The notes under the pieces were generated by a model, which ran no database searches, had not been told where the DNA came from, and saw only the letters and a list, made by a program, of their open reading frames with translations. DNA of 64,000 bases from an uncultured Candidatus Saccharibacteria bacterium. GTDB taxonomy: Bacteria; Patescibacteriota; Saccharimonadia; Saccharimonadales; JAGQNJ01. Shown here piece after piece: positions 8,946 through 61,498 of this stretch. Made by a program: the position numbers and the translations under genes. The DNA lies in NCBI GenBank assembly GCA_964493895.1, contig CAZBPY010000002.1, positions 67,351 to 131,350 of the forward strand, written 5' to 3'. The first letter of the stretch is position 1. The number at the start of each line of letters is the position of its first letter.

Positions 8946-9314
8946 GTGAGCACAATTGAAATTGATCCGCTATCCTGCAAAGAAGCAGCAAACCTAATGT
9001 ACCTGAACGCTGTTAAGGACTTTGCTGAATTTATTGACCCCGAACACAGTCGGAATAGCTTTCGTTATCTGGTTCCAAGAAATACTGGTAACCCTGACAT
9101 GGATAAAATGCACCAACAGGCTGAGGAGATGCTATTGTATGGTATCGGTGCCGTTGCTTTGACGGAAAAAGAGACATTGTTCGAAACAGCCCATGACGTG
9201 CGTCTGCATAAGCTTCTTGAAACTGACCCTAACGGCCAGGAGATAATGATCACCTATCAGGCTGCGCGTCCAGCTGGACATCTACCTAGTTTTAGTCCAG
9301 TTGATTTAGTTTAA
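8946..9314 (+). CDS. hypothetical protein (P122), GTG start
   Basis: 122-aa ORF with TTGATT-16nt-TATGAT (8909..8936) 9 nt before the GTG. It converges on and overlaps the tmk-thyX 3' end by 23 nt. Confidence 0.5.
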   Translation: MSTIEIDPLSCKEAANLMYLNAVKDFAEFIDPEHSRNSFRYLVPRNTGNPDMDKMHQQAEEMLLYGIGAVALTEKETLFETAHDVRLHKLLETDPNGQEIMITYQAARPAGHLPSFSPVDLV

Positions 9315-21929: not shown

Positions 21930-22790
21930 TCAAAGTTGCAAGAATAAGTCTGTTAGGACCAGTTTTGGACTAGCATTAGCTTTTAGAGCTTTCTGAGCCT
22001 GACTATTGCTGCGATTCACTTTCTGCCACTGTTTGGCTGACTTTGTGTTGCCAGCTTTTACGGCTGCTTTCAATGAGGCATGCGACACCAAAGCCAAAGC
22101 ATCTAGTAACCTACTCACCATTTCCTTGTTCTTTAACAGTTCATTAACTTTTAATAATCGCTTGTAGGGGTCCTGTTGGAGCAGTTCCTTAGCCTGATCG
22201 ATGGCCGCCAGCAGCGGATGGCTTTCGTCAGTCATTAAAGCCTGCAACAGACCGACTCGCCCGCCGGAAATCATAAAATTTCGCTTAAATTCTGGGCTGT
22301 TGCCAAAGTGAGCAGCCGCCGTGGTTTCAGACACCGGCAAAACTGGTAATGTCTGGGCTCTGGACACCACTGTTGGTAATAGCTGAGATGGATGTTCTGC
22401 GCATAGAATGAATATAGTGTCCGCCGGCGGCTCTTCCAGTGATTTAAGCAATGCATTTTGAGCCTCTGGTGTCAGCCGAGCCGCCTCTGTAATCATCACT
22501 AGCCTGCGCACTGCAGCTTGTCCCGGAACTACCCTAGATAGTTGTGACTGTACTTGGCGAACCTGATCTATTGAAATTGAATCTTTGCCCTCTTCCGGTT
22601 TGACAACAATCAGGTATGGGTAAGACTTTAGGCTTGCTTCGCTAACTTTTAGGATTCTCCCGGCAATATTCAGTGCTAAAAACTGCTTGCCGCTGCCAGA
22701 TGGGCCGTGAATCAGCAGTCCTGAACTGGGCGTGGCGACAACGTTGTCAACGGCTTTGGCGGTTTGTTCAGCCAACAAAAGTTTATCCAT
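21930..22790 (-). CDS. holB: DNA polymerase III subunit delta-prime
   Basis: Clamp-loader-like (HGPSGSGK, LLKSLEEPP, SRAQT). The start is moved to ATG 22790, giving an 8-nt overlap with rluD instead of 47 nt. Confidence 0.75.
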   Translation of the reverse strand: MDKLLLAEQTAKAVDNVVATPSSGLLIHGPSGSGKQFLALNIAGRILKVSEASLKSYPYLIVVKPEEGKDSISIDQVRQVQSQLSRVVPGQAAVRRLVMITEAARLTPEAQNALLKSLEEPPADTIFILCAEHPSQLLPTVVSRAQTLPVLPVSETTAAAHFGNSPEFKRNFMISGGRVGLLQALMTDESHPLLAAIDQAKELLQQDPYKRLLKVNELLKNKEMVSRLLDALALVSHASLKAAVKAGNTKSAKQWQKVNRSNSQAQKALKANASPKLVLTDLFLQL

Positions 22791-23646
22791 TGACGACCTC
22801 CTGAAACACCGGTGGTACTGGTGATTCAAAGATCTGCTGTTTTTTGTTTGGCAATCTAATTTTCAGTTGCCAGGCGTGCAACATTAGGCGATCAGCCGGC
22901 GGGCCGCCATAAAACGGATCGCCGACAATTGGGTGCCCCAGGTGCTTTAAATGCACACGCAGCTGATGAGTACGGCCAGTCATCGGCAACAACTTGACAA
23001 GTGAATAGCCGTTACCGGTTCCAATTGTCTGATACTCGGTAATAGCCGCCCTGCCCTTAGAAGACACAGTAAATGTCTTAGGATTCCTGGGGCTACGGGC
23101 AATTGGGGCCTCAATGACCGCCTCTGGTGGGCTGAGAGATCCCCCTACAACCGCTACATACTCTTTGTGAACCTTTCGGCTGCTGAACTGTTTTTGCAGC
23201 CAGCTCAGTGCCTCGGAGGTTTTGGCGCAGATAATAACACCTGATGTTCCTCGGTCCAGTCGATGGACAATTCCGGCCCGCTCTCCCTCCAAATCAACTA
23301 ATTTAGGCCGGATAAAGCTGGCTATCGTTGCCTCTGGGTTGAAGCCGCCTTTGGAGTGAGTCAAAACTCCGGTAGGCTTGTCAACTACAATACAGTCATC
23401 ATCTTCATATAAGATTGGTAAGTCAATATCCGGGATATCATCTAGATCGGCCGGGTCAAACTCGACGCTGACTTTATCGTTGGCTTTAACTTTGTACTTG
23501 TTTGGCTGGCTATAGCCATTGACTTTAACCTTCTCATCAGTACACAATTTTTGAATCGGACTGCGGCTCAGTTCAGTAATTTTGCCGGCTAAATACTGAT
23601 CCAAACGCGCCCCAGCCTCATCTGTTGCAACAGTGAAAGTTTGCAT
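22783..23646 (-). CDS. rluD: RluA/RluD-family 23S rRNA pseudouridine synthase
   Basis: 287-aa ORF with an N-terminal S4 domain and the catalytic motif HRLDRGTSGV. Confidence 0.85.
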   Translation of the reverse strand: MQTFTVATDEAGARLDQYLAGKITELSRSPIQKLCTDEKVKVNGYSQPNKYKVKANDKVSVEFDPADLDDIPDIDLPILYEDDDCIVVDKPTGVLTHSKGGFNPEATIASFIRPKLVDLEGERAGIVHRLDRGTSGVIICAKTSEALSWLQKQFSSRKVHKEYVAVVGGSLSPPEAVIEAPIARSPRNPKTFTVSSKGRAAITEYQTIGTGNGYSLVKLLPMTGRTHQLRVHLKHLGHPIVGDPFYGGPPADRLMLHAWQLKIRLPNKKQQIFESPVPPVFQEVVNG

Positions 23647-29521: not shown

Positions 29522-29638
29522 TTATCCCTGCCTCTGCTTGTGCTTTGGCTTCATCTTATTAATTACATAGACACGTCCTTTACGGCGGACAATCTTGTCA
29601 TCCGGACTAATCTTTTTGACACTGGCACGCACTTTCAT
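29522..29638 (-). CDS. rpmJ: 50S ribosomal protein L36 (cysteine-free)
   Basis: Too short for the ORF track. My translation is [38 protein letters not shown], in the canonical slot between infA and rpsM. Confidence 0.88.
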
Positions 29639-29683
29639 GCGGATCATTTCTCCTGTTTTGAGTGAATGACACACTGCTTAAAT

Positions 29684-29905
29684 TTATGATTGGCGATAGG
29701 TGATTCTTCCCTTCGTAAGATCGTAAGGGGTCAACTCGACCGTCACGCTGTCTCCGGGGACGATTCGGATAAAATGTTTCCGCATCTTACCGGCGACGTG
29801 AGCTATAATTTGATGACCATTTTCGAGTTCGACCTTGAACTGAGCGCTGGGAAGCGTCTCAATTATGGTGCCTTTGAGCTCGATAACTTCCTTATTTCCG
29901 GCCAT
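29684..29905 (-). CDS. infA: translation initiation factor IF-1
   Basis: The start is moved to ATG 29905 ([43 protein letters not shown]...), giving 73 aa. Confidence 0.93.
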
Positions 29906-29961
29906 AAATGTATAACAGGGAATAATTGTATCAGACAACGCCCCTGTTTGCAAAGGGTTTT

Positions 29962-31449
29962 TTACTTTTTCTTAGAACGAGTGGTTAAAAAGCGCATGCG
30001 CCGTTGTTTTTTACCGTTCTCTTCGGTGTTTTCGTAGAAGAAGTCCGGATGTTCATATTGGTCATAGGTAACCATTAGGGCTCGCGATTCGATTTGACGC
30101 ATAGTTTCAAGCGCCACGGCTACCAATATTAGGATGCTGGTACCCTGCAAGGCAATGTTGGCGTTGACAAAGCCCTGTATGACCACCGGCACGGCAGCCA
30201 GCAGGCCAAGGCTAAAGGCTCCAAATAATGTCAAGCGATTAACCAGTTTGGATAGATATTTCTCAGTTTGCGAACCAGACCGAACTCCTTCAATAAAACC
30301 GCCTTGTTTTTGCAAGTTTTCGGCGATTTCTTGAGCGTTAAAGGTGATACTGGTATAGAAAAATGTAAATACAAAAACAAAGAAGAAATAAGCTGCTGGA
30401 TAAACATAAGGCTGCCAACCTCCAAGGGCAAATGATTGAGCTGTCGGTGGCTGGAACCACACCATTAATTTTGTACCAAAATCTGCCCATTGTGGATTAC
30501 TGTTACCGCTTAGTAGCTGTCCGACAAAACTTGGTACGCTTAAGAACGCCAGGGCAAAGATAATTGGTATGACCCCAGCGGTGATAAGCTTGATAGGCAA
30601 AACAGTTTTTACACCGCCATAGGCCCGGTTGCCCTGGATGCGTTTAGCGTAATGAATCGTGACATTACGAACTGCTTCGTTGAGTTTGACCACCAAAGCT
30701 GTGGCAATTAATACCCCGGCTAAAATCCCCAGAGCTAACAGTGTTGCGTCACGATCAACCGGCAAGTCAATTCCGAGCAGTGTCCAAGTCGGATTATCGG
30801 CGAAGATACCATTAAATATATTCGATACAGTTGATGGCAGTTGACTAACGATACCGACAGTAATAACTAGAGAAATACCGTTTCCTATACCCTCTTCGGT
30901 TATCAACTCCCCAAGCCACATGAGTAACATTGAGCCACCAGTCAAAGCCGATACCATTAATACCCACTGGGCTATCCCGGCTCCAGCCGCAATATCACCA
31001 ATTCCACCGATTTGTGTGGCCGTTTGTCGTACTAGATAGATGGTTCCAATTGATTGAACAATTGCTAGCGGTAGGGTTAGCATTCGAGTGTATTGATTAA
31101 TCTTCTTGCGCCCAAACTCACCCTCGCTGTTCAAGGTTTCAAGCTTGGGTATGGCCTTGGTCAATAACTGCATAATTATCGAGGCGTTAATATAGGGCCC
31201 CAGGCCAACCAACATAATAGAGAAATTGGCCAACGCGCCGCCGGATAGGACATCAATAAAACTTAACAACTGCGGTGTATCAGCAGTTGTAAACAAAGTT
31301 TCGAGGAGTTGTTTTAGAGTTTGACCGTCCGCTAGGGGGATTGGGATGTGGGCTAAGACACGAAAAATAAACAACATGCCCAAGACAGCTAGGATACGCT
31401 TTCGCATATCCTGGTTACTCAGCGACTTCCAAACCGTTTTCCAATTCAT
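29962..31449 (-). CDS. secY: preprotein translocase subunit SecY (basic C-terminal extension)
   Basis: 495-aa 10-TM ORF in the canonical position after rplO. Confidence 0.95.
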
Positions 31450-31491
31450 ACAACTACCCTTTATTATAGCAGCCGTCAGCTCCAGCTGGGA

Positions 31492-31977
31492 TTATTTTTC
31501 TGACTTTTTAGCGGCCTTCTTTTGGCTGGTTTTTTGTCGGCGTGGTACAGGAGCAGACTTGAATGAGCCGCCAGCCTTGTCAATGGCTTTCACTGCTGCA
31601 GCGCTGGCGCCTTGAGTGGTTAAGCTAATTTTCTTAGTTAGTTCTCCGTTTAAGACCACCTTTGCGCGGACGTATGGACTTGAAATTAACCCGGCTTCGG
31701 CTAATTTGTGATTGTCGACAATACTACCAAGTTTGTTTAACTGGCCTGTATAAACAACCTCGGCCTTGGGGCGCACAGCTCGGAAGCCACGCAGTTTGGG
31801 CAAGCGATTCATCAGCGGATTTTGACCGCCTTCAAAACCAGGTCGCACACCGCCGCCAGACCGAGCATTTTGGCCTTTGGTGCCGCGTCCGGCCGTTTTG
31901 CCGCGGCCGGCGGCAATTCCTCGTCCGACCCTAGTCGGCTTGGCCTTAGACTGGACATTTAATTCGTGATATTTCAT
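31492..31977 (-). CDS. rplO: 50S ribosomal protein L15
   Basis: 161-aa ORF with a Gly/Arg-rich N-terminus (GRGIAAGRGKTAGRGTKGQ). ATGA overlap with the rpsE stop. Confidence 0.95.
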   Translation of the reverse strand: MKYHELNVQSKAKPTRVGRGIAAGRGKTAGRGTKGQNARSGGGVRPGFEGGQNPLMNRLPKLRGFRAVRPKAEVVYTGQLNKLGSIVDNHKLAEAGLISSPYVRAKVVLNGELTKKISLTTQGASAAAVKAIDKAGGSFKSAPVPRRQKTSQKKAAKKSEK

Positions 31978-32522
31978 TTCTTAGCTACCTTTTTGACTTC
32001 ATTTTTCTCAGATTGGCTTGTCACCCATTTATTCTTAGGCTCAATGGACTTCAACGCCTCAACAGTCGCATAGGCAATATTGATCTTATTGGACGAACCC
32101 AATGACTTCGACAAAGCGTTTTTGATGCCGGCCACCTCAAGTACGGTTCTGACTACTCCACCGGCGATCAAGCCTGTACCAGGACTGGCTGGCTTGACCA
32201 TGATTTTAGCTCCAGACACCTTAGCCTCAGATTCATGCGGGATGGTGTCGTTGAAGAGATTAATTCTAACCATATTCTTCTTAGCGACCTCTGTGGCTTT
32301 AGTCATAGCTGAGGTCACATCAGCACCCTTGGATGTGCCAACCCCAACGCGGCCTTTATGGTCGCCAACAACTACTAAGGCCCGAAAGCGGAAGCGGCGG
32401 CCGCCCTTAACTACCCGAGCAACGCGGTCAATGTTCACCATTCGCTCATCAAACTGCTTTTCCTCCGGCACATCTGTCGGGCGGTTAGTCAATGGGCGTC
32501 TTTCTTGTCTATTTTCAGCCAT
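31974..32522 (-). CDS. rpsE: 30S ribosomal protein S5
   Basis: 182-aa ORF with VVKGGRRFRFRALVVVGD. It is followed directly by rplO, with no rpmD/L30. Confidence 0.95.
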   Translation of the reverse strand: MAENRQERRPLTNRPTDVPEEKQFDERMVNIDRVARVVKGGRRFRFRALVVVGDHKGRVGVGTSKGADVTSAMTKATEVAKKNMVRINLFNDTIPHESEAKVSGAKIMVKPASPGTGLIAGGVVRTVLEVAGIKNALSKSLGSSNKINIAYATVEALKSIEPKNKWVTSQSEKNEVKKVAKK

Positions 32523-32523
32523 T

Positions 32524-32883
32524 TTAAAACTTCAGTCCTTTCTCACGGGCGCTGTCAGCCAGAGCTTTTACTCTACCATGATATAATCGAGCCCCTCTGT
32601 CGAAAACTACTTTCTCAACTTTTGCCTTCTTAGCGGCCGCCGCAATCTGTTCACCAACATAGATAGCCTTTTCTGTCATAGACTTCTTATCCAAAGCCTT
32701 AATTCCAACGCTAGTGGCGAAAGCTAGGCTCTGGCCGTTAGAGTCATCAATAATCTGGGCCACAACCTGCCGATTGCTGAGGTGAACACTCAATCGAGGC
32801 CGCTGCGGCGTGCCCCCGGCTCGGCTCCGAACTCGAATTTGGCGCCGCCTTTGGTTCATTTTAGTGTGTGCTAAACGGTTCAT
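32524..32883 (-). CDS. rplR: 50S ribosomal protein L18
   Basis: 119-aa ORF, L18-like (RLSVHLSNRQVVAQIIDD). Confidence 0.95.
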   Translation of the reverse strand: MNRLAHTKMNQRRRQIRVRSRAGGTPQRPRLSVHLSNRQVVAQIIDDSNGQSLAFATSVGIKALDKKSMTEKAIYVGEQIAAAAKKAKVEKVVFDRGARLYHGRVKALADSAREKGLKF

Positions 32884-32885
32884 AT

Positions 32886-33422
32886 CTATTCCTTACCTGA
32901 CTTTCCGGACTTTCGAATAATCCGCTCGTCCACATACTTGATGCCCTTACCCTTGTAAGGTTCCGGCTTCTTGTAAGAGCGAATTTCGGCAGCTACTTGG
33001 CCAACCTGTTGTTTGTCGATGCCGGAGACTTTAATTTTATTCTGCTCAACGCTAACTTGGACACCCTGAGGAACGGTATATTTAATCTCGTGAGAAAAGC
33101 CCAGCTTCATGTTCAAGTCCGCACCGGCCATATTAACACGAAAGCCAACGCCGTTAACCTCTAGTTCTCTAGTAAAACCCTGAGTAACACCTTCAACCAT
33201 GTTATTGATCAGGCTGCGCAGCAACCCATGACGGGCCCGGTGAACTGGCTCGTCGTCAATTCGTGATAAAACCAGCTGATTTTCCTCTTGCTTGACCGAA
33301 ATTCCATCTAACAGCGGTGTGCTTAATTCGCCTTTCGGACCAGTTACTTTAACTTGGTCAGAATCGCTCACGATTGTCACACCGGATGGAACTTCGATCG
33401 GTAGTTTTCCTATACGACTCAT
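32886..33422 (-). CDS. rplF: 50S ribosomal protein L6
   Basis: The start is moved to ATG 33422 (MSRIGKLPIEVPSGV), with AAGGA SD 7 nt upstream. Confidence 0.95.
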   Translation of the reverse strand: MSRIGKLPIEVPSGVTIVSDSDQVKVTGPKGELSTPLLDGISVKQEENQLVLSRIDDEPVHRARHGLLRSLINNMVEGVTQGFTRELEVNGVGFRVNMAGADLNMKLGFSHEIKYTVPQGVQVSVEQNKIKVSGIDKQQVGQVAAEIRSYKKPEPYKGKGIKYVDERIIRKSGKSGKE

Positions 33423-33433
33423 ACTTAATCCTT

Positions 33434-33832
33434 TTAATAAACCTTGCAAATTAATTCACCGCCGACACGCTGCTTCTTAGCCTCGGCGCCAGTCATCACA
33501 CCTTTCGAGGTAGAAACAATAACAATACCGCGACCTCGCTTGATGGTTGGAATATCATCAACGCCAACATAAGCGCGACGCCCAGGTTTACTGATACGAC
33601 TAATTTCAGTTATACGGGCATTAGTATTCTCGGGATTGACTGTAATGGTCATGGTTTTAGGGAAGCCGTCATTGATTTCGACCTTGTCTACGAAGTTGTT
33701 CTGAGCCAGCAGCTTTGCCACCTCTTCCTTAATTTTAGAGTGCGGCAGGTTGACCTGGTGATTGTGCACCAAAATGGCATTCCGGATGCGGGTTAGCATA
33801 TCTGAAATCGGATCGGTTGATGTCATGCTCAT
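33434..33832 (-). CDS. rpsH: 30S ribosomal protein S8
   Basis: The start is moved to ATG 33832 (MSMTSTDPISDMLTRIRNA), after the S14 stop and with AGGAG upstream. Confidence 0.95.
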   Translation of the reverse strand: MSMTSTDPISDMLTRIRNAILVHNHQVNLPHSKIKEEVAKLLAQNNFVDKVEINDGFPKTMTITVNPENTNARITEISRISKPGRRAYVGVDDIPTIKRGRGIVIVSTSKGVMTGAEAKKQRVGGELICKVY

Positions 33833-41585: not shown

Positions 41586-42053
41586 TTATTCAATAATTGG
41601 CAATGACTGACTGACCGATTTCATAGCTGAAATTTTTCTTTCGGTCATCCCCCAAAAGTGTTGTGCATTTCCATCCTCTAGCCAGTCTACGGTTGGTTGA
41701 AGTGTTCCCAAAACAAGAAGACTGGGCTTATATGTATATCGGCCATTCCATCCGCCATAAATAAACCTGGTCGGTATGTCTTCAGCAACTGGAAAATTTT
41801 CAGAAAGGCGGCGATACCTATTGAACAAATCTACCAATGTGCCCCATACAACACTGGCAAACAGCGGAGTTTCATCGGCATTGTCAATAGCTGCTGTTCT
41901 AAATTCTTCCCTAGTTATTACATCCGGTCTAGTTGCACTAAGTAACCCAGTTGTACCATCATATTCAACTTCAAAGCCAAGACGATTAACAAGGCCCTCG
42001 ATATAGCCCTGCTCCTGAGGTGTAACACGTCCGTTAAACTCAATACCCCGCAT
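41586..42053 (-). CDS. hypothetical protein (P161/155 aa) between tuf and rpsJ
   Basis: ATG 42053 has AAGGAA SD, while the ORF-track GTG is at 42071. GC looks lower than in the flanking genes (by eye). Confidence 0.7.
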   Translation of the reverse strand: MRGIEFNGRVTPQEQGYIEGLVNRLGFEVEYDGTTGLLSATRPDVITREEFRTAAIDNADETPLFASVVWGTLVDLFNRYRRLSENFPVAEDIPTRFIYGGWNGRYTYKPSLLVLGTLQPTVDWLEDGNAQHFWGMTERKISAMKSVSQSLPIIE

Positions 42054-42082
42054 TGTCTGTTCCTTGTCCACTAATCACAGAT

Positions 42083-43436: not shown

Positions 43437-43676
43437 TTAAGATTGCCAATCTTCACCTATTGCCTCGCGCCCTAAACTTTTAAGAATCTCGGCTAAACTT
43501 CGATCAGCTAATTCAAAACGCTCATCCAGAATTTGATACACAGGATCATTCATTAATACTGAACCGGATTTATCACTGCGTAGCACATATGATGCCAATT
43601 CGGCACTGGCTTGGCGAAACTGACCAACAGTTTCGGTTCGTGATTCTTCTAGAGAAAGGTAGGGAGTTTGTGTCAT
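43437..43676 (-). CDS. small acidic helical protein (P79)
   Basis: 79-aa ORF starting 20 nt after the P94 stop. I recognise no family. Confidence 0.55.
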   Translation of the reverse strand: MTQTPYLSLEESRTETVGQFRQASAELASYVLRSDKSGSVLMNDPVYQILDERFELADRSLAEILKSLGREAIGEDWQS

Positions 43677-43696
43677 AAATTTAACAAATTCTTATC

Positions 43697-43981
43697 TTAT
43701 ATTCCTTCAATCTGGTCGCCAATATTGCCGTCTTCTAGGTGTGGAGGAGGAGTCAGATTAGCCGCCTCCCCGCTGCCACGGACGAATACCTCATCTCCTT
43801 CTAGATGACTGCCTATCCGATCAAAGGTTTCTCTTAGAGCAGTATTTCCTACTCCGGCCAAAAATTGGCCGCGGCTTTGCCTTGCTCTTTCAATAAGTTG
43901 TTGCCAGACACTACGGCGCGGCAAGGGTTGGGCATCATCGTCCCAATCAATCACTTCATCTGACGATATTCTCTCTACCAT
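43697..43981 (-). CDS. small acidic protein (P94), LEGGE family
   Basis: Starts 2 nt after the fusA stop. It shares DW..RRS.W, LEGDEV.VR (LEG at residues 60-62) and PP motifs with P106. Confidence 0.65.
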   Translation of the reverse strand: MVERISSDEVIDWDDDAQPLPRRSVWQQLIERARQSRGQFLAGVGNTALRETFDRIGSHLEGDEVFVRGSGEAANLTPPPHLEDGNIGDQIEGI

Positions 43982-46081: not shown

Positions 46082-46465
46082 CTATTCTTCGCTTTGCGTT
46101 CGTTGCGTCAGACCCCACCGAGCTAAGTTCCGGCCTATCAAGCTAGTGCTGCAATAACTCTTAACAGTAAATTTACCAATATTCAATTGCTCTGGTCCCT
46201 CACAATAGTCGGCGCCCAACTGAGTTTCTAAGCCTATAAGCACTTCCAAATCATCAGCCTCTGCAAACTTGCGCTCTGCGAAAGCTTTCATACTTCTAGC
46301 ATAATCTGAATCTCCGACAAAAAGGGGATTCTCACCGGCTTGCATTCCGTATTCGGCCGTACGTTGAGCACCACTACGATAGATGTCGACAATTTTTTCT
46401 TGTGGCTTTATATAATTCCGAAGAAAGCGAGGGCACTCCGAACAGTTTTCAAAAGTCCTGGCCAT
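46082..46465 (-). CDS. hypothetical Cys-motif protein (P127) inserted between rpsG and fusA
   Basis: 127-aa ORF lying 3 nt after the rpsG stop and 7 nt before the fusA ATG. It has the motifs CSECP, ENPLFVG, CEGP and C, colinear with P126. Confidence 0.7.
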   Translation of the reverse strand: MARTFENCSECPRFLRNYIKPQEKIVDIYRSGAQRTAEYGMQAGENPLFVGDSDYARSMKAFAERKFAEADDLEVLIGLETQLGADYCEGPEQLNIGKFTVKSYCSTSLIGRNLARWGLTQRTQSEE

Positions 46466-47373: not shown

Positions 47374-50300
47374 TCAGTTTTCACCTTCTTCGTCAACAGA
47401 GGTCGCATCAGCATCGTCCTTGGCGTAAGCATTGTAGCCTGTGCCGACAGGGATCATTCGACCCAAGATAACGTTCTCTTTCAGGCCGCGCAAATGATCG
47501 ACTTTGCCACTGGTAGCAGCAGCAATTAGCACTCGTGTTGTGTCCTGGAAGCTAGCCGCCGATAAGAATGACTCTGTCGACAAACTAGCCTTGGTAATTC
47601 CAAGCAGTAACTGGCTGTACTGAATTAGTTTCTTGCCAGCCCTGGCCAACTCTTCGTTGGTATCGAGCACATCAACTTTACTGACAATGTCACCGGTTAC
47701 GAACTCACTATCACCGGCATCCTCGATCTGAACTCGAGAGAACATCTGTCGAACGATCACTTCCAGGTGCTTGTCGGCAATGTGCTGACCTTGGCTGGCA
47801 AAGATACGCAGAACTTCGTTCATGATGTAACGTTGGGTGGCTTCAACACCTTGCAGGCGCATCAGCTCGTGCAGGTTGATCGAACCGTTGGTCAAACGTT
47901 GACCAGCTACAACTTTGTCGCCATCCTTGATGGTCAGTTGTTTGTAGCCAGGAATTTCATAGCGCTCGATTTCCTGCTTAGCCGGTGAAATGGTTATAGC
48001 CGATTTGTTGACCGAAGCCTTACCGGCTATCGGCGCAATCAACGGGTTAGAGTCGTTCTCGGCACTAGCTAACACATCACCGATGGCCACTTCAGTGCCG
48101 GATTCAATCCGCGGTGTGCGGCTTTCCAGTTTCAGCTCGACCTTTTGCTTGTCATCGGTTGTCACTTGAACTATGTACTGATCTCCCTCTTCCCAAACAT
48201 TGGCCGTACCAGCGACTTCTGACAAATAGGCTTGTCCTTTTGGAGCTCGAACTTCAAAGATTTCTTCAACACGCGGCAGACCTTGAGTAATGTCATCAGC
48301 CGCCGCCGAGCCGCCGCCGTGATAAGACCGCAGGGTCAGCTGGGTTCCAGGCTCACCAATACTCTGTGCCGCCACGACACCTATAGGATAGTGCGAGCTA
48401 ACCACTTCGCCGGTGGCTGGATCAATGCCGTAAGATTTGCGCGATACACCGCGCGGGCTGCTGCAGCTTAGCACCGACATGATCTTTACACCGTCAACTT
48501 TAGTGTCCTTATCGATAGCATTAGCAATTGCTCGGGTTATGAGCTCGCCCTTCTTAACATGGCCTGGCACATTTTCAGCAGCATAGCGACCTTCAAGTCG
48601 GAAACCATAACTGACACCTATAAACTCGGCGTCAGCTCGGTTCATAGTAAAGCCAGGGTCTGGGGCTTCCTCATTATCCGTAAAGACATCCTGAGAAACA
48701 TCAACCAGACGACGAGTCAGGTAGCCAGAATCAGCGGTTTTTAGAGCTGTATCGATCATGGTCTTTCTGGTACCGCGAGTTGAGGTGAAATACTCCAATG
48801 GACTTAGACCGCGTTTGTAGCCAGACTTAATCGGCAGCTCAATGGCCCGACCGGTAGTATCCATGGTTACGCCCAAGATACCGACGGCGTTTTTAACTTG
48901 GCCGATGTTACCGCGGGCTCCAGACACAACGGCTGTAGACATAGAACTGTCTTCCTGATCGAATTGCAAACTCAGGACCTTCTTAACTTCGGCATCGGCT
49001 TCCATCCAAGCATCAACCGTTAGGCGGTAACGCTCATCCTCAGTAATGAAGCCTTGGTCATATTGTTCACTAATTTCGGTGACTTTCTTTTCACCTTCAT
49101 CAAGAATTTGCTGCAATCCCTTAATGTCGCTGAAGTCGTCCATACCCAGGCTCAGACCAGAGAAAGTGGCATACTCAAAACCTAAGTCTTTCAAATCATC
49201 GGCAATTTGGGCGGTCACGTCTGGACCATATTGCTCGTATATTTCCGACATCACGTCTGAAAGTTGCTTCTTGGTCATGGTCTGGTCTTTGAACTTAAAG
49301 TCGTCGGGCATTATTTCATTGAACAGCAGGCGGCCCAGCGTTGTCTCGCGGACTGCTCCGCGAAAAGGTAGCTTGACTCGACTTTGCAGAATTATTTCAC
49401 CAGCGTCATAGGCCATAACAGCTTCGTCCAACGAGGCAAAAGCCTCGGCTTCACCGGCTACTCCCGGGCGTTCGTAGGTTAAGTAGTAACAGCCTAAAAC
49501 AATATCTTGCTCAATATGCAAAATGGGTGAACCGTCGGCCGGTTTTAGCAAGTTCTTATTGCTAGCCATAATCTCGCGAGCTTCTTTCTGTGAAGCCACC
49601 GACAACGGCAAGTGTACAGCCATCTGGTCACCATCGAAGTCAGCATTGAAACCTTTACAAACCAATGGGTGCAGTTGAATCGCCTTACCTTCGATTAGCT
49701 TTGGCTGGAAGGCCTGAATCGACAGACGGTGCAGTGACGGTGCACGATTCAACAGAACATACTTGCCCTTGATGACTTCGTCCAGGGCATCCCAAACCGG
49801 AGTCTCACCCAGCTCGATCATGCGGGTAGCCGATCGAATATTGTGGGCAAATTCGTTCTCAATTAGATGACCGATCACGAATGGCTTGAATAGTTCCAAA
49901 GCCATCATCTTTGGCAGGCCGCATTCGTCAATCTTAAGTTCCGGCCCGGCTACAATCACCGAACGGCCAGAGTAGTCAACTCTTTTTCCAAGCAAGTTCT
50001 GGCGGAAACGACCCTGCTTACCTTTCAGCATGTCGGACAGCGACTTTAGTCGACGCCGTTGACCGCTGGCTGCCACGGCTCGGCCACTCCGAGCGTTACC
50101 GTTGTCGATAAGGGCGTCAACGGCTTCTTGCAGCATACGCTGTTCATTACGGCAAATAACCTCAGGAGCATTCAAATCAATCAACTTCTTCAACCGATTA
50201 TTGCGGTTAATAACCCTCCTATAAAGATCATTTAGATCGGAAGTGGCAAATCGACCACCGGTCAGTTGTACCATTGGCCTTAGATCCGGAGGTATTACTG

Positions 50301-51195
50301 GCAAAATAGTCACGCACATAGAATTTGGTTTGATCCCAGCCCGCTCCATAGACTCTAGCAAGCGCAGGCGCTTCATCAATTTCTTCTTCCGCTGGCCTTT
50401 GGCCTCTTCGGCTTCATCAGACAATTGTTTGATCAATTTAGCCAAGTCGATTTCGTCTAGCAGCTCTTTAATGGCTTCGCCACCCATGCCGACTTCGACG
50501 ATATCTTGAAGTTCGTCAGGCAAGTTGTTGTAGTCTCCCTCTGAAATCAGACCATACTTGACCAGCATATCCAGCTGATTCATTAGTTCAAGATGAGTAG
50601 TTTCCAGCTCTTCCAACTCTTTAGTTCGAGCTGCTGCCAAAGCTTTGACATCGGCGTCTTCTTTCTTGCCTTCAGCTTCGTAGCGAGCATTAATGGCTTC
50701 AACAGCTGCCTTGTACTCGGCCTCTTTATCCTCGCGGTATTTGTCGCGAGCCTTTTCATCAACAGATTTAAAAATGTATGCTGCAAAGTAAGCCACCCGT
50801 TCCAGGTTTTTAACTGTCATATTAAGCAGCAAGCCGATAGCTGATGGCGTACCGCGTAAGAACCAAATGTGAGCCACTGGGCTGGCCAATTTAATATGAC
50901 CCATTCGTTCACGGCGGACAATTGAGCGAGTAACGATTTCGCCATTCTTATCGACAGCGGCTTCTCTTGACCGAACACCCTTGTACTTAGCGTCGTGAGG
51001 ATTAATATCTTTGACCGGACCAAAAATGCGCTCACAAAATAGGCCATCACGTTCTGGTTTTTGAGTTCGATAGTTAATTGTTTCCGGCTTTAAAACTTCA
51101 CCGTGTGACCATTCCAAAATATCGGCAGCGCTGGCTACAGCCAACCGAACCGCATCAAAATCAGCAATGTCTGGACCGCTTGAATATCGTCGCAT
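47374..51195 (-). CDS. rpoC: DNA-directed RNA polymerase subunit beta-prime (both zinc sites lack most Cys ligands)
   Basis: The start is moved to ATG 51195 (AGGAGG SD, 1 nt after the rpoB stop). The catalytic motif [12 protein letters not shown] is present. Confidence 0.96.
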
Positions 51196-51196
51196 C

Positions 51197-54100
51197 TTAA
51201 GCCTCCTCTCCTTCACTCACATTGGTATCTTCTTCTCCTGAACTGGAAGTCACACTGGCCATGTCGCCTTCAATGTCCATGATATCGAACTCATCAACAC
51301 CGTCTTCTTTAGTCATATCTACTTCGGAGACTTCTGGCTGCGGCACATCAACTTCGGCCTGGTGTTTAGCTTCGTCCTTGATGTTTTCAGCCAAAACTGC
51401 TTCGGCGTCGACAACTTTTTCGCTGGTGATCAGATCAACCTTCAGACCCAGACCTTGCAATTCCTTGACCAGCACATTAAATGACTCAGGAACCTTTGGT
51501 CCAACAATATCTGTACCTTTTATGATTGATTCATAGGCTTTGGATCGTCCGTACACATCGTCAGATTTAATGGTTAGCATTTCTTGCAGAGTATGAGCCG
51601 CGCCATAAGCTTCCAGAGCCCAAACCTCCATTTCACCAAACCTTTGACCACCGTTTTGAGCCTTGCCGCCCAATGGCTGTTGGGTAACCATAGTGTATGG
51701 ACCAGTTGACCTGGCATGAATCTTGTCAACAATCATGTGGTTAAGTTTGATCATGTACATAGAACCAACAGTTGTAGTTTCCGAGAATGGCTCACCGGTT
51801 CGGCCATCAAATAATTGTTGCTTGCCGTTTTCCGGATAGCCGGCTTGCTTTAAGAGTTCGCGGATCTTGTCAATTGGCACGCCATTAAACGGCGGTGTGA
51901 CAACTTTCATTCCGAGGGCCCGAGCGGCCATACCCAAGTGGGTTTCAAACAGCTGGCCAATGTTCATACGGCTTGGCACGCCCAGTGGGTTAAGGACAAT
52001 GTCCACCGGTGTTCCGTCTTCCATATACGGCATGTCTTCAACCGGTAGGACTCGGGCAATAACACCCTTGTTACCATGACGGCCACCTAATTTATCTCCA
52101 ACCGCAATCTTGCGCATCTGCGCCACAAAGACCTGAACCTGCATTAGCACGCCAGCCTTCAATTCGTGGCCGTTCTCGCGAGAGAAGACTTTAACACCGA
52201 CAACTTTGCCGTGTTTACCGTTACTCATGCGCTGGGAGGTGTCACGAACATCCTTGGCCTTTTCACCAAAAATGGCCCGAAGCAAGCGCTCTTCCGAACT
52301 CAGTTCCTGCTCGCCCTTTGGCGTAATCTTTCCAACCAAGATGTCGCCGGGGTGAACTTCAGCACCTATTCGGACAATTCCATCATCATCCAGGTGCCGC
52401 AGCGCATCTTCGGAAACATTAGGAATGTCGCGAGTGACAATTTCCGGACCTAATTTGGTCTCACGCACTTCAGTCATGTAATCCACAATGTGAATCGATG
52501 TCAGGCTGTCATCTTCAACCAGTTTGCGCGAAATAATTACAGCATCCTCGAAGTTATAACCTTTCCACGGCATGAAAGCTACAATCAAATCCTTACCAAG
52601 TGCCAGTTCGCCACCCTGGATTGACATACCTTCAATGATTGGCTGGCCTTTCTTAACCTTATCGCCAGCGCTAACCACAACCTTTTGATTAATACAGCTG
52701 CCTTCGTTACTGCGGACAAAGTGCTGGGGTTGATAAGTTACTTTACCGGCTTTCTTGTACTTTATAACAACCTGTTCAGCAGTAGCCGATACCACCTCGC
52801 CATCTTCTTCAGCTACGGTCAGCTGGCCAGTATTTTGTGCCACTGTAGACTCCAGACCAGTACCGACAATTGGCGAATCCGGCTGAATTAACGGCACCGC
52901 TTGGCGCTGCTGGTTGCTTCCCATCAAACTTCGATAAACATAGTTCTTTTCAATGAACGGAATCAAACCGGCACTGGAGCCAATAATTTGCCTGAGGCTG
53001 GCGTCCATATGAGTCACTTCATTAGCGTCAGTTTCACCTGATTTCAGACGAATGCGAGCCGAGACACGATCATCAATAAAGTAACCATCATTGCCAAACT
53101 TTTCATCGGCGCTGGCAATTACGGCTTTTTCCTCTTCAGCGGCATCAAGATATTCGACTTTATCAGTGACTTTAGCCTTTACGGGCCAGGTAATTTGGCT
53201 TTTTACAGCCGCTAGTTTCTTAGCATCAGCTGCTGTGATAGTCTTGCCGGCTTTAACGATAACTTTACCCTTTTCATCTTCCAGATCAACTGCGGCAATG
53301 TGTCCGGAAGCATCTTTGGCTGTAACTGCATTAATAACTTTGCGGTAAGGCGTTTCCATAAAACCGTAGTCATTAATCCGGGCATAGGCAGCCATGTTCA
53401 ACACCAAACCGATGTTGGCGCCTTCAGGCGTTTCCACAGCACAGATTCGGCCATAGTGAGTGGCGTGAGCATCGCGAACTTCAAAACCGGCTCGTTCGCG
53501 GGATAATCCGCCGGGTCCCATTGAACTTAAACGGCGTTTGTGAGCCAGCTCGGACAGAGGGTTAATCTGATCCATAAACTGAGACAATTGGGAGCTGGCA
53601 AAGAACTCGCGAACAGCCGCCACGATTGGCCGAGCATTGACCAACTGTCCAGGGGTAACTGTCTCAATTTCCGACATCGACATGCGGTCCTTGGTGTTAC
53701 GCTCCATGCGTAGTAAGCCGATGCGGAACTGGCGCTGGACCAACTCCCCAACTAACTTGACTCGCCGATTTGCTAGCGAGTCAATGTCATCTGCTGGTTC
53801 CTGAGTGTTATTAAGGCGAATAATTTCAGCAATGATGGCAATCAAATCTTCCAGTCGCATAACCCGGTTTTCGGCCGTATTGGGCACATCCAGGTCAAGG
53901 CGCTTATTAATCTTATAGCGACCGACCCTGGAAAAATCGAAACGTTTGAAGTTATAAAACATATTTTCTAGCAGTGACCGGGCGTTGTCGACAGTGGCCA
54001 AATCACCCGGGCGCAGACGGCGGTAGACCTCAATTAAGGCATCGTTGGTGCCTTTGGCCGGATCCTTGTCCAGGGTTGCATCAATATAGTTAGTTTCTCC

Positions 54101-54751
54101 CTGATCAACGTGAGCGAAACTTTCGCGAATTTTATTCTCTGTCAATCCCAAAGCCCGAAGCAGAGTTGTAACAGGAATCTTGCGCTTGCGGTCAATTTTA
54201 ACGTACATAGCGCCGTTGGCAGCCGTCTCAAACTCTAACCAAGCTCCGCGGCCAGGGATTACCTTAGCACCATACAGATTTCGCGAACCATGCTGATCGG
54301 CCGTGAAGAAAACGCCAGCCGAACGGATCAGCTGGCTAACTACCACTCGTTCGGCGCCGTTAATCACGAAAGTACCGCGAGAGGTCATCCATGGGTAGTC
54401 ACCCAAATAAATTTCCTGCTTCTTAACTTCACCAGTAACTTTATTGGTCAAAACTACCGTGGCCTTCAACGGAGCATCAAAAGTAACGTTATTCTCGCGA
54501 GCCTCAGATTCGGTAACTTTTGGCTTGTCAAATTTATAATCCTTAAAACTCAAGGTCAGCTTGGTACCGGTGTAATCTTCGATCGGACTGATTTCAGCCA
54601 ATAGCTCGCCGAGCCCTTCTTCTACGAACCACTGAAAGGACTTGTTTTGATGATCTACCAAGTTTGGCAAGTCGATGATGTCATCGGCCTTAGTAAAATA
54701 CGTGCGTTTAGTTGGTTTTATTGAGGTTGAGGTCTTGGACTGTTTTGGCAT
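51197..54751 (-). CDS. rpoB: DNA-directed RNA polymerase subunit beta
   Basis: 1184-aa ORF with GEMEVWALEAYGAA and an acidic C-terminal tail. Confidence 0.97.
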   Translation of the reverse strand: MPKQSKTSTSIKPTKRTYFTKADDIIDLPNLVDHQNKSFQWFVEEGLGELLAEISPIEDYTGTKLTLSFKDYKFDKPKVTESEARENNVTFDAPLKATVVLTNKVTGEVKKQEIYLGDYPWMTSRGTFVINGAERVVVSQLIRSAGVFFTADQHGSRNLYGAKVIPGRGAWLEFETAANGAMYVKIDRKRKIPVTTLLRALGLTENKIRESFAHVDQGETNYIDATLDKDPAKGTNDALIEVYRRLRPGDLATVDNARSLLENMFYNFKRFDFSRVGRYKINKRLDLDVPNTAENRVMRLEDLIAIIAEIIRLNNTQEPADDIDSLANRRVKLVGELVQRQFRIGLLRMERNTKDRMSMSEIETVTPGQLVNARPIVAAVREFFASSQLSQFMDQINPLSELAHKRRLSSMGPGGLSRERAGFEVRDAHATHYGRICAVETPEGANIGLVLNMAAYARINDYGFMETPYRKVINAVTAKDASGHIAAVDLEDEKGKVIVKAGKTITAADAKKLAAVKSQITWPVKAKVTDKVEYLDAAEEEKAVIASADEKFGNDGYFIDDRVSARIRLKSGETDANEVTHMDASLRQIIGSSAGLIPFIEKNYVYRSLMGSNQQRQAVPLIQPDSPIVGTGLESTVAQNTGQLTVAEEDGEVVSATAEQVVIKYKKAGKVTYQPQHFVRSNEGSCINQKVVVSAGDKVKKGQPIIEGMSIQGGELALGKDLIVAFMPWKGYNFEDAVIISRKLVEDDSLTSIHIVDYMTEVRETKLGPEIVTRDIPNVSEDALRHLDDDGIVRIGAEVHPGDILVGKITPKGEQELSSEERLLRAIFGEKAKDVRDTSQRMSNGKHGKVVGVKVFSRENGHELKAGVLMQVQVFVAQMRKIAVGDKLGGRHGNKGVIARVLPVEDMPYMEDGTPVDIVLNPLGVPSRMNIGQLFETHLGMAARALGMKVVTPPFNGVPIDKIRELLKQAGYPENGKQQLFDGRTGEPFSETTTVGSMYMIKLNHMIVDKIHARSTGPYTMVTQQPLGGKAQNGGQRFGEMEVWALEAYGAAHTLQEMLTIKSDDVYGRSKAYESIIKGTDIVGPKVPESFNVLVKELQGLGLKVDLITSEKVVDAEAVLAENIKDEAKHQAEVDVPQPEVSEVDMTKEDGVDEFDIMDIEGDMASVTSSSGEEDTNVSEGEEA

Positions 54752-58848: not shown

Positions 58849-60069
58849 TTACTGCAGAGGGATTAGCGACTGCTTGCCTGTCTCCAGATCCTTAACCTTC
58901 AATTGGCCCGACTTCAGTTCTTCTTCGCCAATCACAACCAATTTTTTGATGCCTTTTTTCTCGGCAGTTTTGATTTTCTTGTCCAGTTTTCGTCCCGAGA
59001 AATCTACAGCGACATTCTGGCCTTGGCTTCGAAGTTTTTGAGCTATTTCTTGAGCTCCCTCAGCGGCTTCACCAATAACAGCCACATATATATCAGTTTC
59101 CGTCTCAAGTTCCGCCAATAGTCCATTGCTCTTTAGAAAGTTGACTAATGTAGCATCGCCCATGCCAAAACCAACTGTCGCCACAGGTTCGACCCCAAAC
59201 TCACCGATCAAGCCATCATAGCGGCCGCCACCGAACATCGAACGATTGTTTTCCGGATTGGCGTCAAACACTTCAAACACGATATCTGTGTAGTACTCGA
59301 ACCCCCGAGCCAAATACCGATTAAAGCGCACATTCGTAACACCTTGTTGTTTTAGCTGCTCAATTACCGTTTGAGCCTCTTTCGGCACAGCCTCATCAGC
59401 CAGGAAGTCTAAAAGACGGGCGGCTTTGGCTCTCCCAAGTAAATCATCGAAGAGCTTTTCCCACTCATTCGATTCAACCTTTTCCTTCTTGTCGATTAAG
59501 CCCATAGCCCTTATGCGAGTTGCTTTATCCAGATCCATATCGTCGAAAACCTCTTCAAATAATTTTCGGCTGTTAATCTGGATCTCATATTGATCTGGTT
59601 TGGCCGCAAAAGCCCGCATGACGCTATCAGCCAGCAAAATTATCTCGACATCGCCTTCAATGCCTTCGATGCCAAACAAGTCAGCATTAAGCTGCCAAAA
59701 CTCTCGTGTCCGCCCACGCTGAGGCCGTTCATACCGAAAACAGTTTGGGATACTGAAAAGGCGCAGGGGATAACTAAGCTCTTGGCGCCGAGCCGCCACC
59801 ATCCGTGACACCGACGGCGTCATCTCTGGCCGCATGACTACTTTGCGACCGCCGCGATCGGTGAACGAATAGGTTTGCTCGTTAACGATTTCTTCAGATG
59901 TCTTGGCGGTGTAAAGCTCTAGTGGCTCTAAAACCGGGGCGTCATACTCCTCATACCCAAATGACTGACAAACACGGCGCCAAGTCTCAAAAATCCAATT
60001 GCGCAGGCGCATGTCTTCAGGATAGTAATCCCGAGTACCCTTATATGGTTGTGTTGAAAGTTTACTCAT
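58849..60069 (-). CDS. hisS: histidine--tRNA ligase
   Basis: 406-aa class II aaRS with RPEMTPSVSR, FGGGRYDGL and a C-terminal anticodon-binding domain. ATGA overlap with the upstream gene. Confidence 0.94.
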   Translation of the reverse strand: MSKLSTQPYKGTRDYYPEDMRLRNWIFETWRRVCQSFGYEEYDAPVLEPLELYTAKTSEEIVNEQTYSFTDRGGRKVVMRPEMTPSVSRMVAARRQELSYPLRLFSIPNCFRYERPQRGRTREFWQLNADLFGIEGIEGDVEIILLADSVMRAFAAKPDQYEIQINSRKLFEEVFDDMDLDKATRIRAMGLIDKKEKVESNEWEKLFDDLLGRAKAARLLDFLADEAVPKEAQTVIEQLKQQGVTNVRFNRYLARGFEYYTDIVFEVFDANPENNRSMFGGGRYDGLIGEFGVEPVATVGFGMGDATLVNFLKSNGLLAELETETDIYVAVIGEAAEGAQEIAQKLRSQGQNVAVDFSGRKLDKKIKTAEKKGIKKLVVIGEEELKSGQLKVKDLETGKQSLIPLQ

Positions 60070-60782
60070 TCAGTTCTTTCCTTTCTTAATAGTGTAGCGT
60101 AATACTCCGTTAATGTAGAGCCTATGAAAATCGGTACGATTTCTCCCTTGAGATTAGCCTGTTTTACATCCTCCTTTGAAAGAGGCTTGAACGGCTTCCA
60201 GGTCTGTGACCTAAATCTGGTCTTCTCATCCCATGTCACACGTCGAGCAAACCGATATATCTGCACTGTGGGCGTATTTGCTTTGATAGTGCCCTGCCTC
60301 ATAGACTTAATTTCTTCATACCAATATTCGGCATTGTCCAGCGGATCGCCAATGCTGATCTCCACCGACAAAGCGTTTGGACAATGTTTGTTGATGCAAT
60401 CATAGGTGGCTTCAATGCAGTCTGCCAGACCAAACTGTTTACAAACCTGGAATAGCAGAGGCTTGCATGCCACGCCCACAAACGCTGAATTATTGTTCGG
60501 CGTCAAAGTATTGTGGAAATCCAGCACCAAGTCATAGTCGTCACATAACCTTGCTAATCGTTGGGCTCGCTCGGATTCATAGCTACCTAAATTAGATTGG
60601 TTAAAACTTCGATTTAAGTCAGTTTCAACGAAGCGCCTATTAGCATGAACTGCCCGAGGATTGCCAATCACAGCATCAACACCCTTGATAGGCTGCTTTT
60701 TAAGGAGCTTGACTAGATCTACGCCAAGTCTTTCGTTGCCGTGCATGCCACCAATGACCAGGATGCGTTTCGGCATCATCAT
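60066..60782 (-). CDS. succinylglutamate desuccinylase/aspartoacylase (AstE/AspA, M14-like) family hydrolase
   Basis: 238-aa ORF with ILVIGGMHGNERLGV, NPRAVHANRRFVETDLNRSF and DFHNT, the zinc-ligand pattern of the family. Confidence 0.78.
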   Translation of the reverse strand: MMMPKRILVIGGMHGNERLGVDLVKLLKKQPIKGVDAVIGNPRAVHANRRFVETDLNRSFNQSNLGSYESERAQRLARLCDDYDLVLDFHNTLTPNNNSAFVGVACKPLLFQVCKQFGLADCIEATYDCINKHCPNALSVEISIGDPLDNAEYWYEEIKSMRQGTIKANTPTVQIYRFARRVTWDEKTRFRSQTWKPFKPLSKEDVKQANLKGEIVPIFIGSTLTEYYATLLRKERTE

Positions 60783-61498
60783 TATCGACCTCCGCCCGGC
60801 CTCACCACCAGCAATGTTCGTCTATCAGGGATGGTCGGCAGCTCGTAGCCATGATTTTTAAGCCTGTCGTTAACAATGCTCGTCCCGGCTCGCTGGCTAC
60901 CAATCCAAACACTGGTGGTGCTGCCTTTGTCACGCAGTGTCGAGGCCACGATGCCCTCGGCGAGCGTCCTAGTAGCTATAACAGTATCGCCACCATAAAA
61001 CTGACTAATCCGATCAAGCGTCTGCCCTCGGTCTCTTAAATTGCCGGTTGGAATGCGGTCTCGATTAGCAAACGTATCTTCGATCCAAGCAAACTCGGCT
61101 GGCAGTATTCCTTTAAGTACAGGAGCCATAGCAGGTTGGTCCTGATACTTGCGAGTCCAAAGCTCATCCGGATTGGTTGGTCTTACCAGTGTTGCTCTTT
61201 GCGGGTATTCTCCGTCAAAGGCCACTTCCAATAGTGCTCCTTGGCCGACAATTTGGCTACGCCAAGTGTCTACTAGTTTGGTCTCGCTATAGGCTTCACA
61301 AAGTGGCTGGCCACATTCAATACACATGCAACCTGGCTGGTCAGGTGTAAACTCGACTTGGCAATCACTATACCCACAGCGGCTAACTTCAAACCAGGGC
61401 GATCCTGCAAAAGCTACCTTATAGGTCTGGGCCAGTTCTGGTCCGATCGCATCAATTCTTTCGGCATTATTTGCCGAAATAAGTTCAATTCGGTTCAT
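60782..61498 (-). CDS. GNAT-like protein with inserted Cys-rich (zinc-ribbon-like) segment
   Basis: 238-aa ORF with a RimI-like N-terminal motif AFAGSPWFE, the insert CGYSDCQVEFTPDQPGCMCIECGQPLC, and a TAATG overlap with the AstE-like gene. The fold call is tentative. Confidence 0.55.
   Translation of the reverse strand: MNRIELISANNAERIDAIGPELAQTYKVAFAGSPWFEVSRCGYSDCQVEFTPDQPGCMCIECGQPLCEAYSETKLVDTWRSQIVGQGALLEVAFDGEYPQRATLVRPTNPDELWTRKYQDQPAMAPVLKGILPAEFAWIEDTFANRDRIPTGNLRDRGQTLDRISQFYGGDTVIATRTLAEGIVASTLRDKGSTTSVWIGSQRAGTSIVNDRLKNHGYELPTIPDRRTLLVVRPGGGR

Follow-up and report, generated by a model that had tools for sequence, protein, structure and literature searches.

Loss of the zinc ligands of the RNA polymerase β′ subunit, together with other Cys-based zinc modules, in Candidatus Saccharibacteria

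Introduction

In canonical bacterial RNA polymerases, among them those of E. coli, Thermus, Bacillus and Mycobacterium, the β′ subunit holds two structural zinc ions, one coordinated by C70, C72, C85 and C88 and the other by C814, C888, C895 and C898, and both sites are usually treated as fixed features of the bacterial enzyme. Work by Markov et al. in 1999 is said to have shown that the second of these sites is needed in E. coli for β′ folding and assembly, and the first, in the N-terminal zinc-binding domain (ZBD), which belongs to the RNA-exit region, is reported to act in E. coli in termination and antitermination. The ZBD has contacts with Q, put RNA, RapA, SspA and Rho (PMC6606751, PMC9378689, PMC8501970, PMC7515715, PMC9908020). 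Here we describe rpoC, the gene for β′, in a stretch of 64,000 nucleotides from contig CAZBPY010000002.1 of an uncultured Candidatus Saccharibacteria bacterium (class Saccharimonadia, an ultra-small member of the candidate phyla radiation); this whole stretch is referred to as the window, and positions are counted from its first letter. The encoded protein retains a single one of the eight zinc ligands.

The other described systems that come close are ribosomal. Makarova, Ponomarev and Koonin, in a 2001 paper entitled 'Two C or not two C', reportedly distinguished C-plus and C-minus forms of the zinc-ribbon ribosomal proteins L36, L31, L32, L33, L28, S14 and S18, that is, forms with and without the Cys ligands.

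Results

An intact β′ gene with seven of eight zinc ligands replaced

The gene and the parts of it that carried zinc ligands in other bacteria are the following.

47374-51216, minus strand: rpoC, RNA polymerase β′ subunit, an intact open reading frame (ORF) of 1280 amino acids (aa) with a GTG start; the NCBI call has 1273 aa
50917-51021, minus strand: Cys-free ZBD of β′, aa 66-100, with P73, D75, V88 and N91 replacing E. coli C70, C72, C85 and C88
48643-48705, minus strand: first segment of the second zinc site, aa 838-858, with E850/A851 in place of E. coli C814
48406-48486, minus strand: second segment of the second zinc site, aa 911-937, with C918 kept and S925 and S928 replacing C895 and C898

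The NCBI protein (P0001) is 100% identical to the RpoC of the window. The Rpb1 domains PF04997, PF00623, PF04983 and PF04998 are present in it and in all 120 homologues examined, and PF05000 in some; the catalytic motif NADFDGDQM occupies residues 524-532, and overall identity to E. coli β′ is 41%. Judged on these features the protein belongs to the RpoC family, and the features that fail are the two sets of zinc ligands, which are near-universal and not definitional. Like canonical β′, it has the usual domain order, the catalytic motifs, zinc regions that align almost without gaps and the rpoB-rpoC-rpsL-rpsG-fusA context, standing directly downstream of rpoB (51197-54751) and ahead of rpsL, rpsG and fusA; unlike canonical β′, it has seven of the eight zinc ligands replaced, and both of its zinc regions must do their work with no zinc bound by thiolates. 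Ligand positions were assigned with the translated rpoC of E. coli K-12 as reference, by aligning the window protein to solved β′ chains with HMMER and, globally, to E. coli β′, which has Cys at positions 58, 70, 72, 85, 88, 198, 366, 454, 517, 608, 814, 869, 888, 895 and 898. The E. coli motifs quoted for the second site in the original prediction, a short earlier note on this DNA, and its ligands C814, C888, C895 and C898 agree exactly with this translation.

That the finding is an artefact, whether through a pseudogene, a wrongly translated frame or an error of sequencing or assembly, has next to no probability. The frame, with every catalytic motif in place, runs uninterrupted through 1280 aa, and the same state is seen in hundreds of independent assemblies. 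Chance and sequencing error can be dismissed because the ORF is intact, the NCBI protein is identical and relatives share the state.

The ZBD is Cys-free and strongly conserved

The ZBD aligns without gaps both to the solved β′ chains and to E. coli β′, and none of its four Cys ligands is left. Among 124 Saccharibacterial sequences P73 is invariant (124/124) and D75 is found in 123, with His74, Asp75 and Asp89 each present in 123-124. Mean column entropy across aa 66-100 is 0.185 bit, against 0.74 bit for the whole of RpoC, and the segment falls within the most conserved 12% of 35-residue windows of the protein (it beats 88% of them). Relaxed selection, which the original prediction had offered as one explanation, does not fit the present state of the protein, given this low entropy of the converted ZBD; only the ligand columns of the second site drift. 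We propose that the ZBD turned Cys-free at unchanged length and has since become nearly invariant, the domain being kept and its zinc-finger role given up; in its converted form it presumably still lines the RNA-exit region.

The second site retains one Cys, at a position that varies among relatives

The interval 48427-48690 (minus strand) translates to RpoC residues 843-930. Both alignments agree in placing E. coli C814 at E850/A851 (beside a one-residue gap), C888 at C918, C895 at S925 and C898 at S928, with the codons of A851 at 48664-48666, of C918 at 48463-48465, of S925 at 48442-48444 and of S928 at 48433-48435. The earlier observation that this site keeps one of four Cys, the equivalent of C888, and has Ser for C895 and C898 is thus borne out (A851/C918/S925/S928). 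Across the 124 relatives, variability at this site is greatest in the column equivalent to C814 (A 30, C 24, D 19, S 15), which has an entropy of 3.1 bit. The C918 column (C 76, S 21, A 18, V 5; 1.67 bit) has Cys replaced in 48 of 124 sequences, the S925 column is divided chiefly between S (59) and P (43; 1.85 bit), and the S928 column holds S in 114 and C in 8 (0.46 bit). Judged by these columns, the former ligand positions drift freely and rank with the most variable of RpoC. C918 itself reads as a dispensable evolutionary relic with no ligand role, because S, A or V stand there in relatives and the majority of species lack Cys at all four positions. Invariant residues lie beside the former ligands, namely D853-P-G after the first position and Y929-G-x-D-P-A-T after the last.

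One thiol, two serine hydroxyls and an Ala or Glu would not make a tetrahedral Cys4 zinc site. Because such a site is impossible with the remaining ligands and most species have no thiol there, this part of β′ would be expected to fold and assemble metal-free, and absence of metal is the most likely state of the second site. Once the ligands were lost, their former positions would have drifted neutrally, and the fixed neighbours DPG and YG-DPAT may provide compensating packing contacts.

Loss of both sites is shared across Saccharibacteria

The names attached to the closest homologues of this RpoC are Candidatus Saccharibacteria or Saccharimonadales. In the 120 closest, at 75-100% identity, the ZBD Cys are absent without exception, and the second site holds no Cys in 39, one in 54 and two in 27. 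A degenerate DNA pattern for FGP..DINPHD, scanned over one genome per GTDB species, matched at least 120 species genomes. Among the matches listed, nearly all are titled Saccharibacteria, Saccharimonadales, Saccharimonas, Nanosynbacter or Nanoperiomorbaceae, and all 120 pattern loci encode RpoC, 55-81% identical to that of the window; the second site lay within the retrieved stretch in 76 of these species and has no Cys in 55, one in 19 and two in 2, never three or four. Nanosynbacter has none. Set beside its relatives, then, the window shows a class-wide condition and not the quirk of a single genome.

Among these 120 loci are three on contigs titled Dongiaceae, Dormiibacterota and Nomurabacteria (DATMTU010000041.1, DATLRC010000006.1 and JAIROX010000005.1; loci L038, L063 and L074), which carry an rpoC of Saccharibacterial type. 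Their RpoC proteins are 62-72% identical to that of the window and have the DINPHD motif, and the contigs are probably mis-binned or from mislabelled assemblies.

The boundary of the trait was drawn with a HMMER search of 1.8 billion proteins (50%-identity cluster representatives), of which the best 150 were read. Among these, both sites are lost only in the four to five closest clusters (55-58% identity); all remaining representatives keep the ZBD Cys4, and all but four keep the second site where it could be parsed. The four exceptions (P0175, P0178, P0188 and P0244) belong to other lineages, in which the ZBD Cys4 is intact and the second site has no ligand Cys, as in VMSPITHLRRNSISARAYGIDPST from P0178. 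The P0178 lineage (locus L124) is not Cys-poor, with 0.90% Cys in 25 neighbouring housekeeping proteins, so the second site can be lost without a global trend in Cys. As far as these sequences tell, the double loss is a signature of Saccharibacteria, and loss of the second site alone has also occurred elsewhere. Apparent losses of the ZBD in P0234, P0258, P0206 and others were alignment artefacts from variable spacing; all have four Cys on reading.

The same relatives bear on the idea that metal is still held in a non-canonical way, by His74, Asp75 and Asp89 in the ZBD or by C918 with carboxylates and water at the second site. The near-invariance of the three ZBD residues speaks for it, as does D853 of the DPG motif, invariant beside the second site. 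However, the second site is Cys-free in most species, where Pro, Gly, Thr or Ala have taken the former ligand positions, so that a conserved coordination sphere can be ruled out there, and no bacterial β′ is known to hold metal in either of these ways. We consider such binding improbable.

Other zinc modules are lost in the window

Four further genes of the window encode proteins in which a zinc site is degenerate or gone.

29522-29635, minus strand: rpmJ, ribosomal protein L36 in its C-minus form (Pfam Ribosomal_L36, E = 6.6e-19)
954-1562, minus strand: recR, with a degenerate zinc finger keeping one of four Cys (Pfam HhH, Toprim and C-terminal domains)
4495-5916, minus strand: dnaX, clamp-loader τ/γ, with the zinc module deleted (alignment to E. 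coli γ/τ structures)
21930-22829, minus strand: holB-like gene for clamp-loader δ′, apparently without the zinc module (Pfam DNA_pol3_delta2)

The losses that the original prediction had listed beside the second site, in the ZBD (P73/D75/V88/N91), L36, RecR and DnaX, were all found on alignment. L36 has S, D and N at the places of the three Cys of E. coli L36. A Pfam scan found no zinc-finger domain in the RecR of the window, and its ligand positions read C/T/S/Y: where solved RecR proteins have y-C-k-i-C and v-C-d-i-C, it has y-C-q-k-T and l-S-p-l-Y. All 119 close homologues (P0333-P0452) show this same state (one Cys with T, S and Y; YCxxTFAL...S..LY), and the surviving Cys of RecR, unlike the varying relic in RpoC, may have kept or gained a role. 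DnaX carries a 13-residue deletion exactly at ...CetgitatpCgvCdnC..., so that no Cys is left there, and the whole protein contains none. In δ′, the stretch from the P-loop to the first residue aligned to E. coli δ′, which lies outside the alignment, is Cys-free and about 15 residues shorter. E. coli δ′ carries a Cys4 zinc module in that stretch, and its loss here probably adds a sixth site to the other five.

Every window protein whose E. coli orthologue we take to have a Cys-based zinc site has lost its own. The in-operon copies of L36, L33 and S14 are all C-minus, and rpoC, rpmJ, rpmG, rpsN, recR and dnaX are each present in the window as a single, C-minus copy. Conditional expression of C-minus genes, as in a Zur-regulated zinc-sparing response to zinc starvation, is disfavoured, because these genes lie inside constitutive ribosomal and rpoBC operons. 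Since the β′ losses are common to all sampled Saccharibacteria and the RecR state recurs in every homologue, the event appears to be old and lineage-wide.

A history of drift would also produce losses, if bottlenecked symbionts fixed slightly deleterious ligand losses singly and compensated for them later, with no adaptive driver. The free variation of the former second-site columns fits such a history, as do the differing numbers of residual second-site Cys among species and the four other RpoC lineages that independently lost the second site and kept the ZBD, one of them at 0.90% Cys. Yet RpoC, and the converted ZBD especially, is under strong purifying selection, the RecR remnant is the same in all 119 relatives, the loss of six sites in housekeeping proteins of one window is hard to credit to independent accidents, and the states are ancient and stable with no ongoing decay. 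The conservation of the ZBD, the non-ligand Cys that RpoC has kept (below) and the uniformity of RecR together exclude ongoing relaxed selection in this genome and point to an old, stabilized state. Drift as the whole explanation therefore seems to us rather unlikely.

Cys is depleted, and zinc is still used

The regions that could be aligned to 36 E. coli orthologues, drawn from the rpoBC, str, S10, spc and alpha operons, contain 22 Cys against 56 in E. coli (ratio 0.39, Fisher p = 9e-5), and 21 against 45 when zinc ligands are left out (p = 0.003). In the same regions Met stands at 0.95 and His at 0.97 of the E. coli count, and all amino acids but Cys fall within 0.75-1.17. Over the 82 likely genes of the window, which is rich in housekeeping genes that are Cys-poor everywhere, Cys accounts for 0.45% of residues and 44 of the 82 proteins are Cys-free; in bacterial reference proteomes the median is 0.91% and the 5th percentile 0.67% (PMC10642813). 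RpoC has not simply been purged of Cys, because three non-ligand Cys near the catalytic core, C61, C432 and C520, are conserved as the counterparts of E. coli C58, C366 and C454.

Such figures would be expected if the lineage avoids cysteine or thiols, either because it cannot make Cys and depends on a host for it or because zinc thiolates are prone to oxidation in cells with few redox defences, the loss of zinc sites being a by-product. The depletion is specific to Cys and holds with the ligands excluded, and 0.45% lies below the bacterial 5th percentile, housekeeping-rich though the window is. However, the non-ligand Cys of RpoC are not depleted and its three conserved ones are kept, so that in this protein ligand Cys were lost preferentially; DnaX lost an entire module, which goes beyond thiols; and an invariant Cys4 motif persists in a gene described next. 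We hold thiol avoidance as a tentative explanation, possible but below even odds.

The window also retains counter-examples, the first two of those listed to zinc avoidance and the third to a blanket avoidance of Cys4 motifs.

60066-60782, minus strand: AstE/AspA-family hydrolase (Pfam AstE_AspA_cat, E = 9e-19)
17148-17852, minus strand: YgjP-like metallopeptidase (Pfam YgjP-like, E = 2.6e-38)
60782-61498, minus strand: GNAT-fold protein of 238 aa restricted to Saccharibacteria, with a Cys4 insert (C41, C46, C59 and C62)

In aspartoacylase a His/Glu/His triad provides the zinc ligands. The hydrolase keeps this triad, with ggmHgnE and dfHnt conserved relative to aspartoacylase structures, and the YgjP-like peptidase retains its HExxH motif (HELAHTNH). 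By these motifs zinc is clearly still used, in His/Glu-type enzymes that persist in the window. The GNAT-like protein has no Pfam match; it has 42 homologues, and 21 sequences that are 39-62% identical all share its four Cys. A model made with AlphaFold 2 (AF2) has a predicted local distance difference test score (pLDDT) of 94.7, its best PDB matches are GNAT acetyltransferases, and the Cys lie on an inserted hairpin. The gene adjoins that of the AstE/AspA-type hydrolase and hisS, and the motif is the only conserved Cys4 motif found in the window.

These proteins bear directly on zinc economy, the proposal of the original prediction that chronic scarcity selected for the removal of structural zinc sites throughout the proteome, as in the C-minus ribosomal proteins of zinc limitation. 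The premise holds, in that multiple Cys4 sites are gone; the Cys-based sites known in E. coli orthologues have all disappeared from the window proteins, the operon copies of L36, L33 and S14 are without exception C-minus, and the trait is common to the whole clade. The economy itself is unproven. The AstE/AspA and YgjP enzymes have kept their His/Glu ligands, the GNAT-like protein of this lineage has an invariant Cys4, and use of His is 0.97 times that of E. coli where Cys is at 0.39. Record titles place the clade in gut, oral, soil and groundwater habitats, which differ greatly in zinc supply, and no gene for Zur or zinc uptake (zur, znuABC) was found within the 64-kb window. Zinc scarcity as the driver is, on balance, unlikely, though it deserves to be kept in view.

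Two candidates for further Cys-based zinc proteins were rejected. A search for CxxC...CxxC proteins in 120 related 8-kb loci gave 22 matches, all of them spurious antisense ORFs within rpoB or rpoC. A 127-aa ORF at 46082-46465 (minus strand), considered as a conserved zinc partner, is without a homologue in all 31 related loci in which rpsG is present. This ORF has an N-terminal CxxC and no Pfam match and sits tightly between rpsG and fusA in the str operon; it is either an orphan insertion or no gene.

Other features of the window

Several observations concern other parts of the window. A 778-aa ORF at 9292-11628 (minus strand) joins an N-terminal thymidylate kinase to a region of ThyX flavin-dependent thymidylate synthase (two matching stretches), and after it comes a dCTP deaminase at 11633-12337. 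In the spc/alpha region (29522-33449, minus strand) the genes of S5 and L15 have no L30 gene between them, adk and map are missing from the interval between secY and infA, and SecY is long, at 495 aa. Between fusA and tuf there are small unannotated ORFs (43437-43981), and between tuf and rpsJ there is one of 161 aa (41586-42071). On the plus strand the window has a single sizeable gene (19429-20517), which encodes a glycoside hydrolase of family 10 (xylanase-type) with an N-terminal membrane or signal segment.

Discussion

We read the change in β′ as one item of an ancient, lineage-wide move that freed the core information-processing machinery of Saccharibacteria from Cys4-zinc modules, and give this reading a probability of roughly 0.75. 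Its driver may have been that the lineage became independent of a supply of zinc, of a supply of cysteine or of zinc thiolates that are sensitive to oxidation; we place freedom from cysteine or from such thiolates slightly ahead of zinc scarcity, and pure drift behind both. Several points weigh against the reading. Its lineage-wide scope rests on one 64-kb window and on the relatives of RpoC and RecR. The absence of zinc is deduced from ligand chemistry as read in the sequence, and His74, Asp75 and Asp89 of the converted ZBD could in principle make a non-thiolate metal site. An AF2 model built from Cys-poor Saccharibacterial sequences only has pLDDT values of 78-94 at aa ~845-945 and β′ chains as its best PDB matches, but this AF2/Foldseek result is weak, with fragment flanks that are poorly predicted and disordered outside their context, a global root-mean-square deviation of ~15 Å and a TM-score of ~0.5, and AF2 tends to reproduce the family fold. 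Cys depletion was measured against E. coli only and on 36 housekeeping proteins; the non-ligand Cys of RpoC are not depleted relative to other RpoC representatives (~0.4-0.5% in both); and an invariant Cys4 motif survives in the neighbouring gene at 60782-61498.

If the reading of a lineage-wide release from Cys4-zinc modules is right, Saccharibacteria may offer the first recognized cellular multisubunit RNA polymerase without structural zinc in its largest subunit, combined with a systematic stripping of Cys4 modules from transcription, replication (τ/γ and δ′), RecR and L36; we would put this larger claim at even odds. A full-text literature search, whose coverage leaves out most subscription journals, returned no report of zinc-site loss in the RNA polymerase of Saccharibacteria or of the candidate phyla radiation (CPR), and none of cysteine-poor proteomes in Saccharibacteria.

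A class of bacteria without the two β′ sites would make the requirement for them contingent and not fundamental. It would demonstrate in nature, and across a whole clade, that zinc sites held to be indispensable can be engineered out, and the Saccharibacterial sequences offer natural ways of building this fold with no zinc. The partners that use the zinc-bound ZBD as a docking site, among them phage Q, put RNA, RapA, SspA, Rho and the coupled ribosome, may in this group be missing or bind in another manner. The lineage is a system for asking why structural zinc thiolates go, whether for reasons of zinc supply, cysteine supply or oxidation, and it includes cultivable, genetically tractable members, Nanosynbacter and Southlakia (PMC10187176). 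The answer would inform the physiology of a group that is abundant, largely uncultured and dependent on hosts, and to which human oral species belong. In addition, the clade has a simple sequence marker in the Cys-free DINPHD motif, which here revealed genome bins that are probably mislabelled.

Among known systems, the C-plus/C-minus ribosomal proteins provide the closest likeness. As in those, Cys4 or Cys3His ribbons in the window are disrupted with fold and function kept, and L36 is a textbook C-minus case. Fold and length, by which a C-minus form is recognized, are kept in the β′ ZBD, the second β′ site, L36 and RecR; DnaX differs, its module having been deleted. Unlike the ribosomal C-minus cases, which are small proteins and often members of zinc-regulated paralogue pairs, the changes here extend to RecR, the clamp loader and the catalytic subunit of RNA polymerase, and each of these occurs in the window only once, as an in-operon copy. 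Unlike the P0175, P0178, P0188 and P0244 lineages, which lost only the second site, the Saccharibacterial clusters alone are without both. What is new is that disruption of the zinc-ribbon type affects both sites of the catalytic RNA polymerase subunit, and with it the clamp loader and RecR, and does so class-wide.

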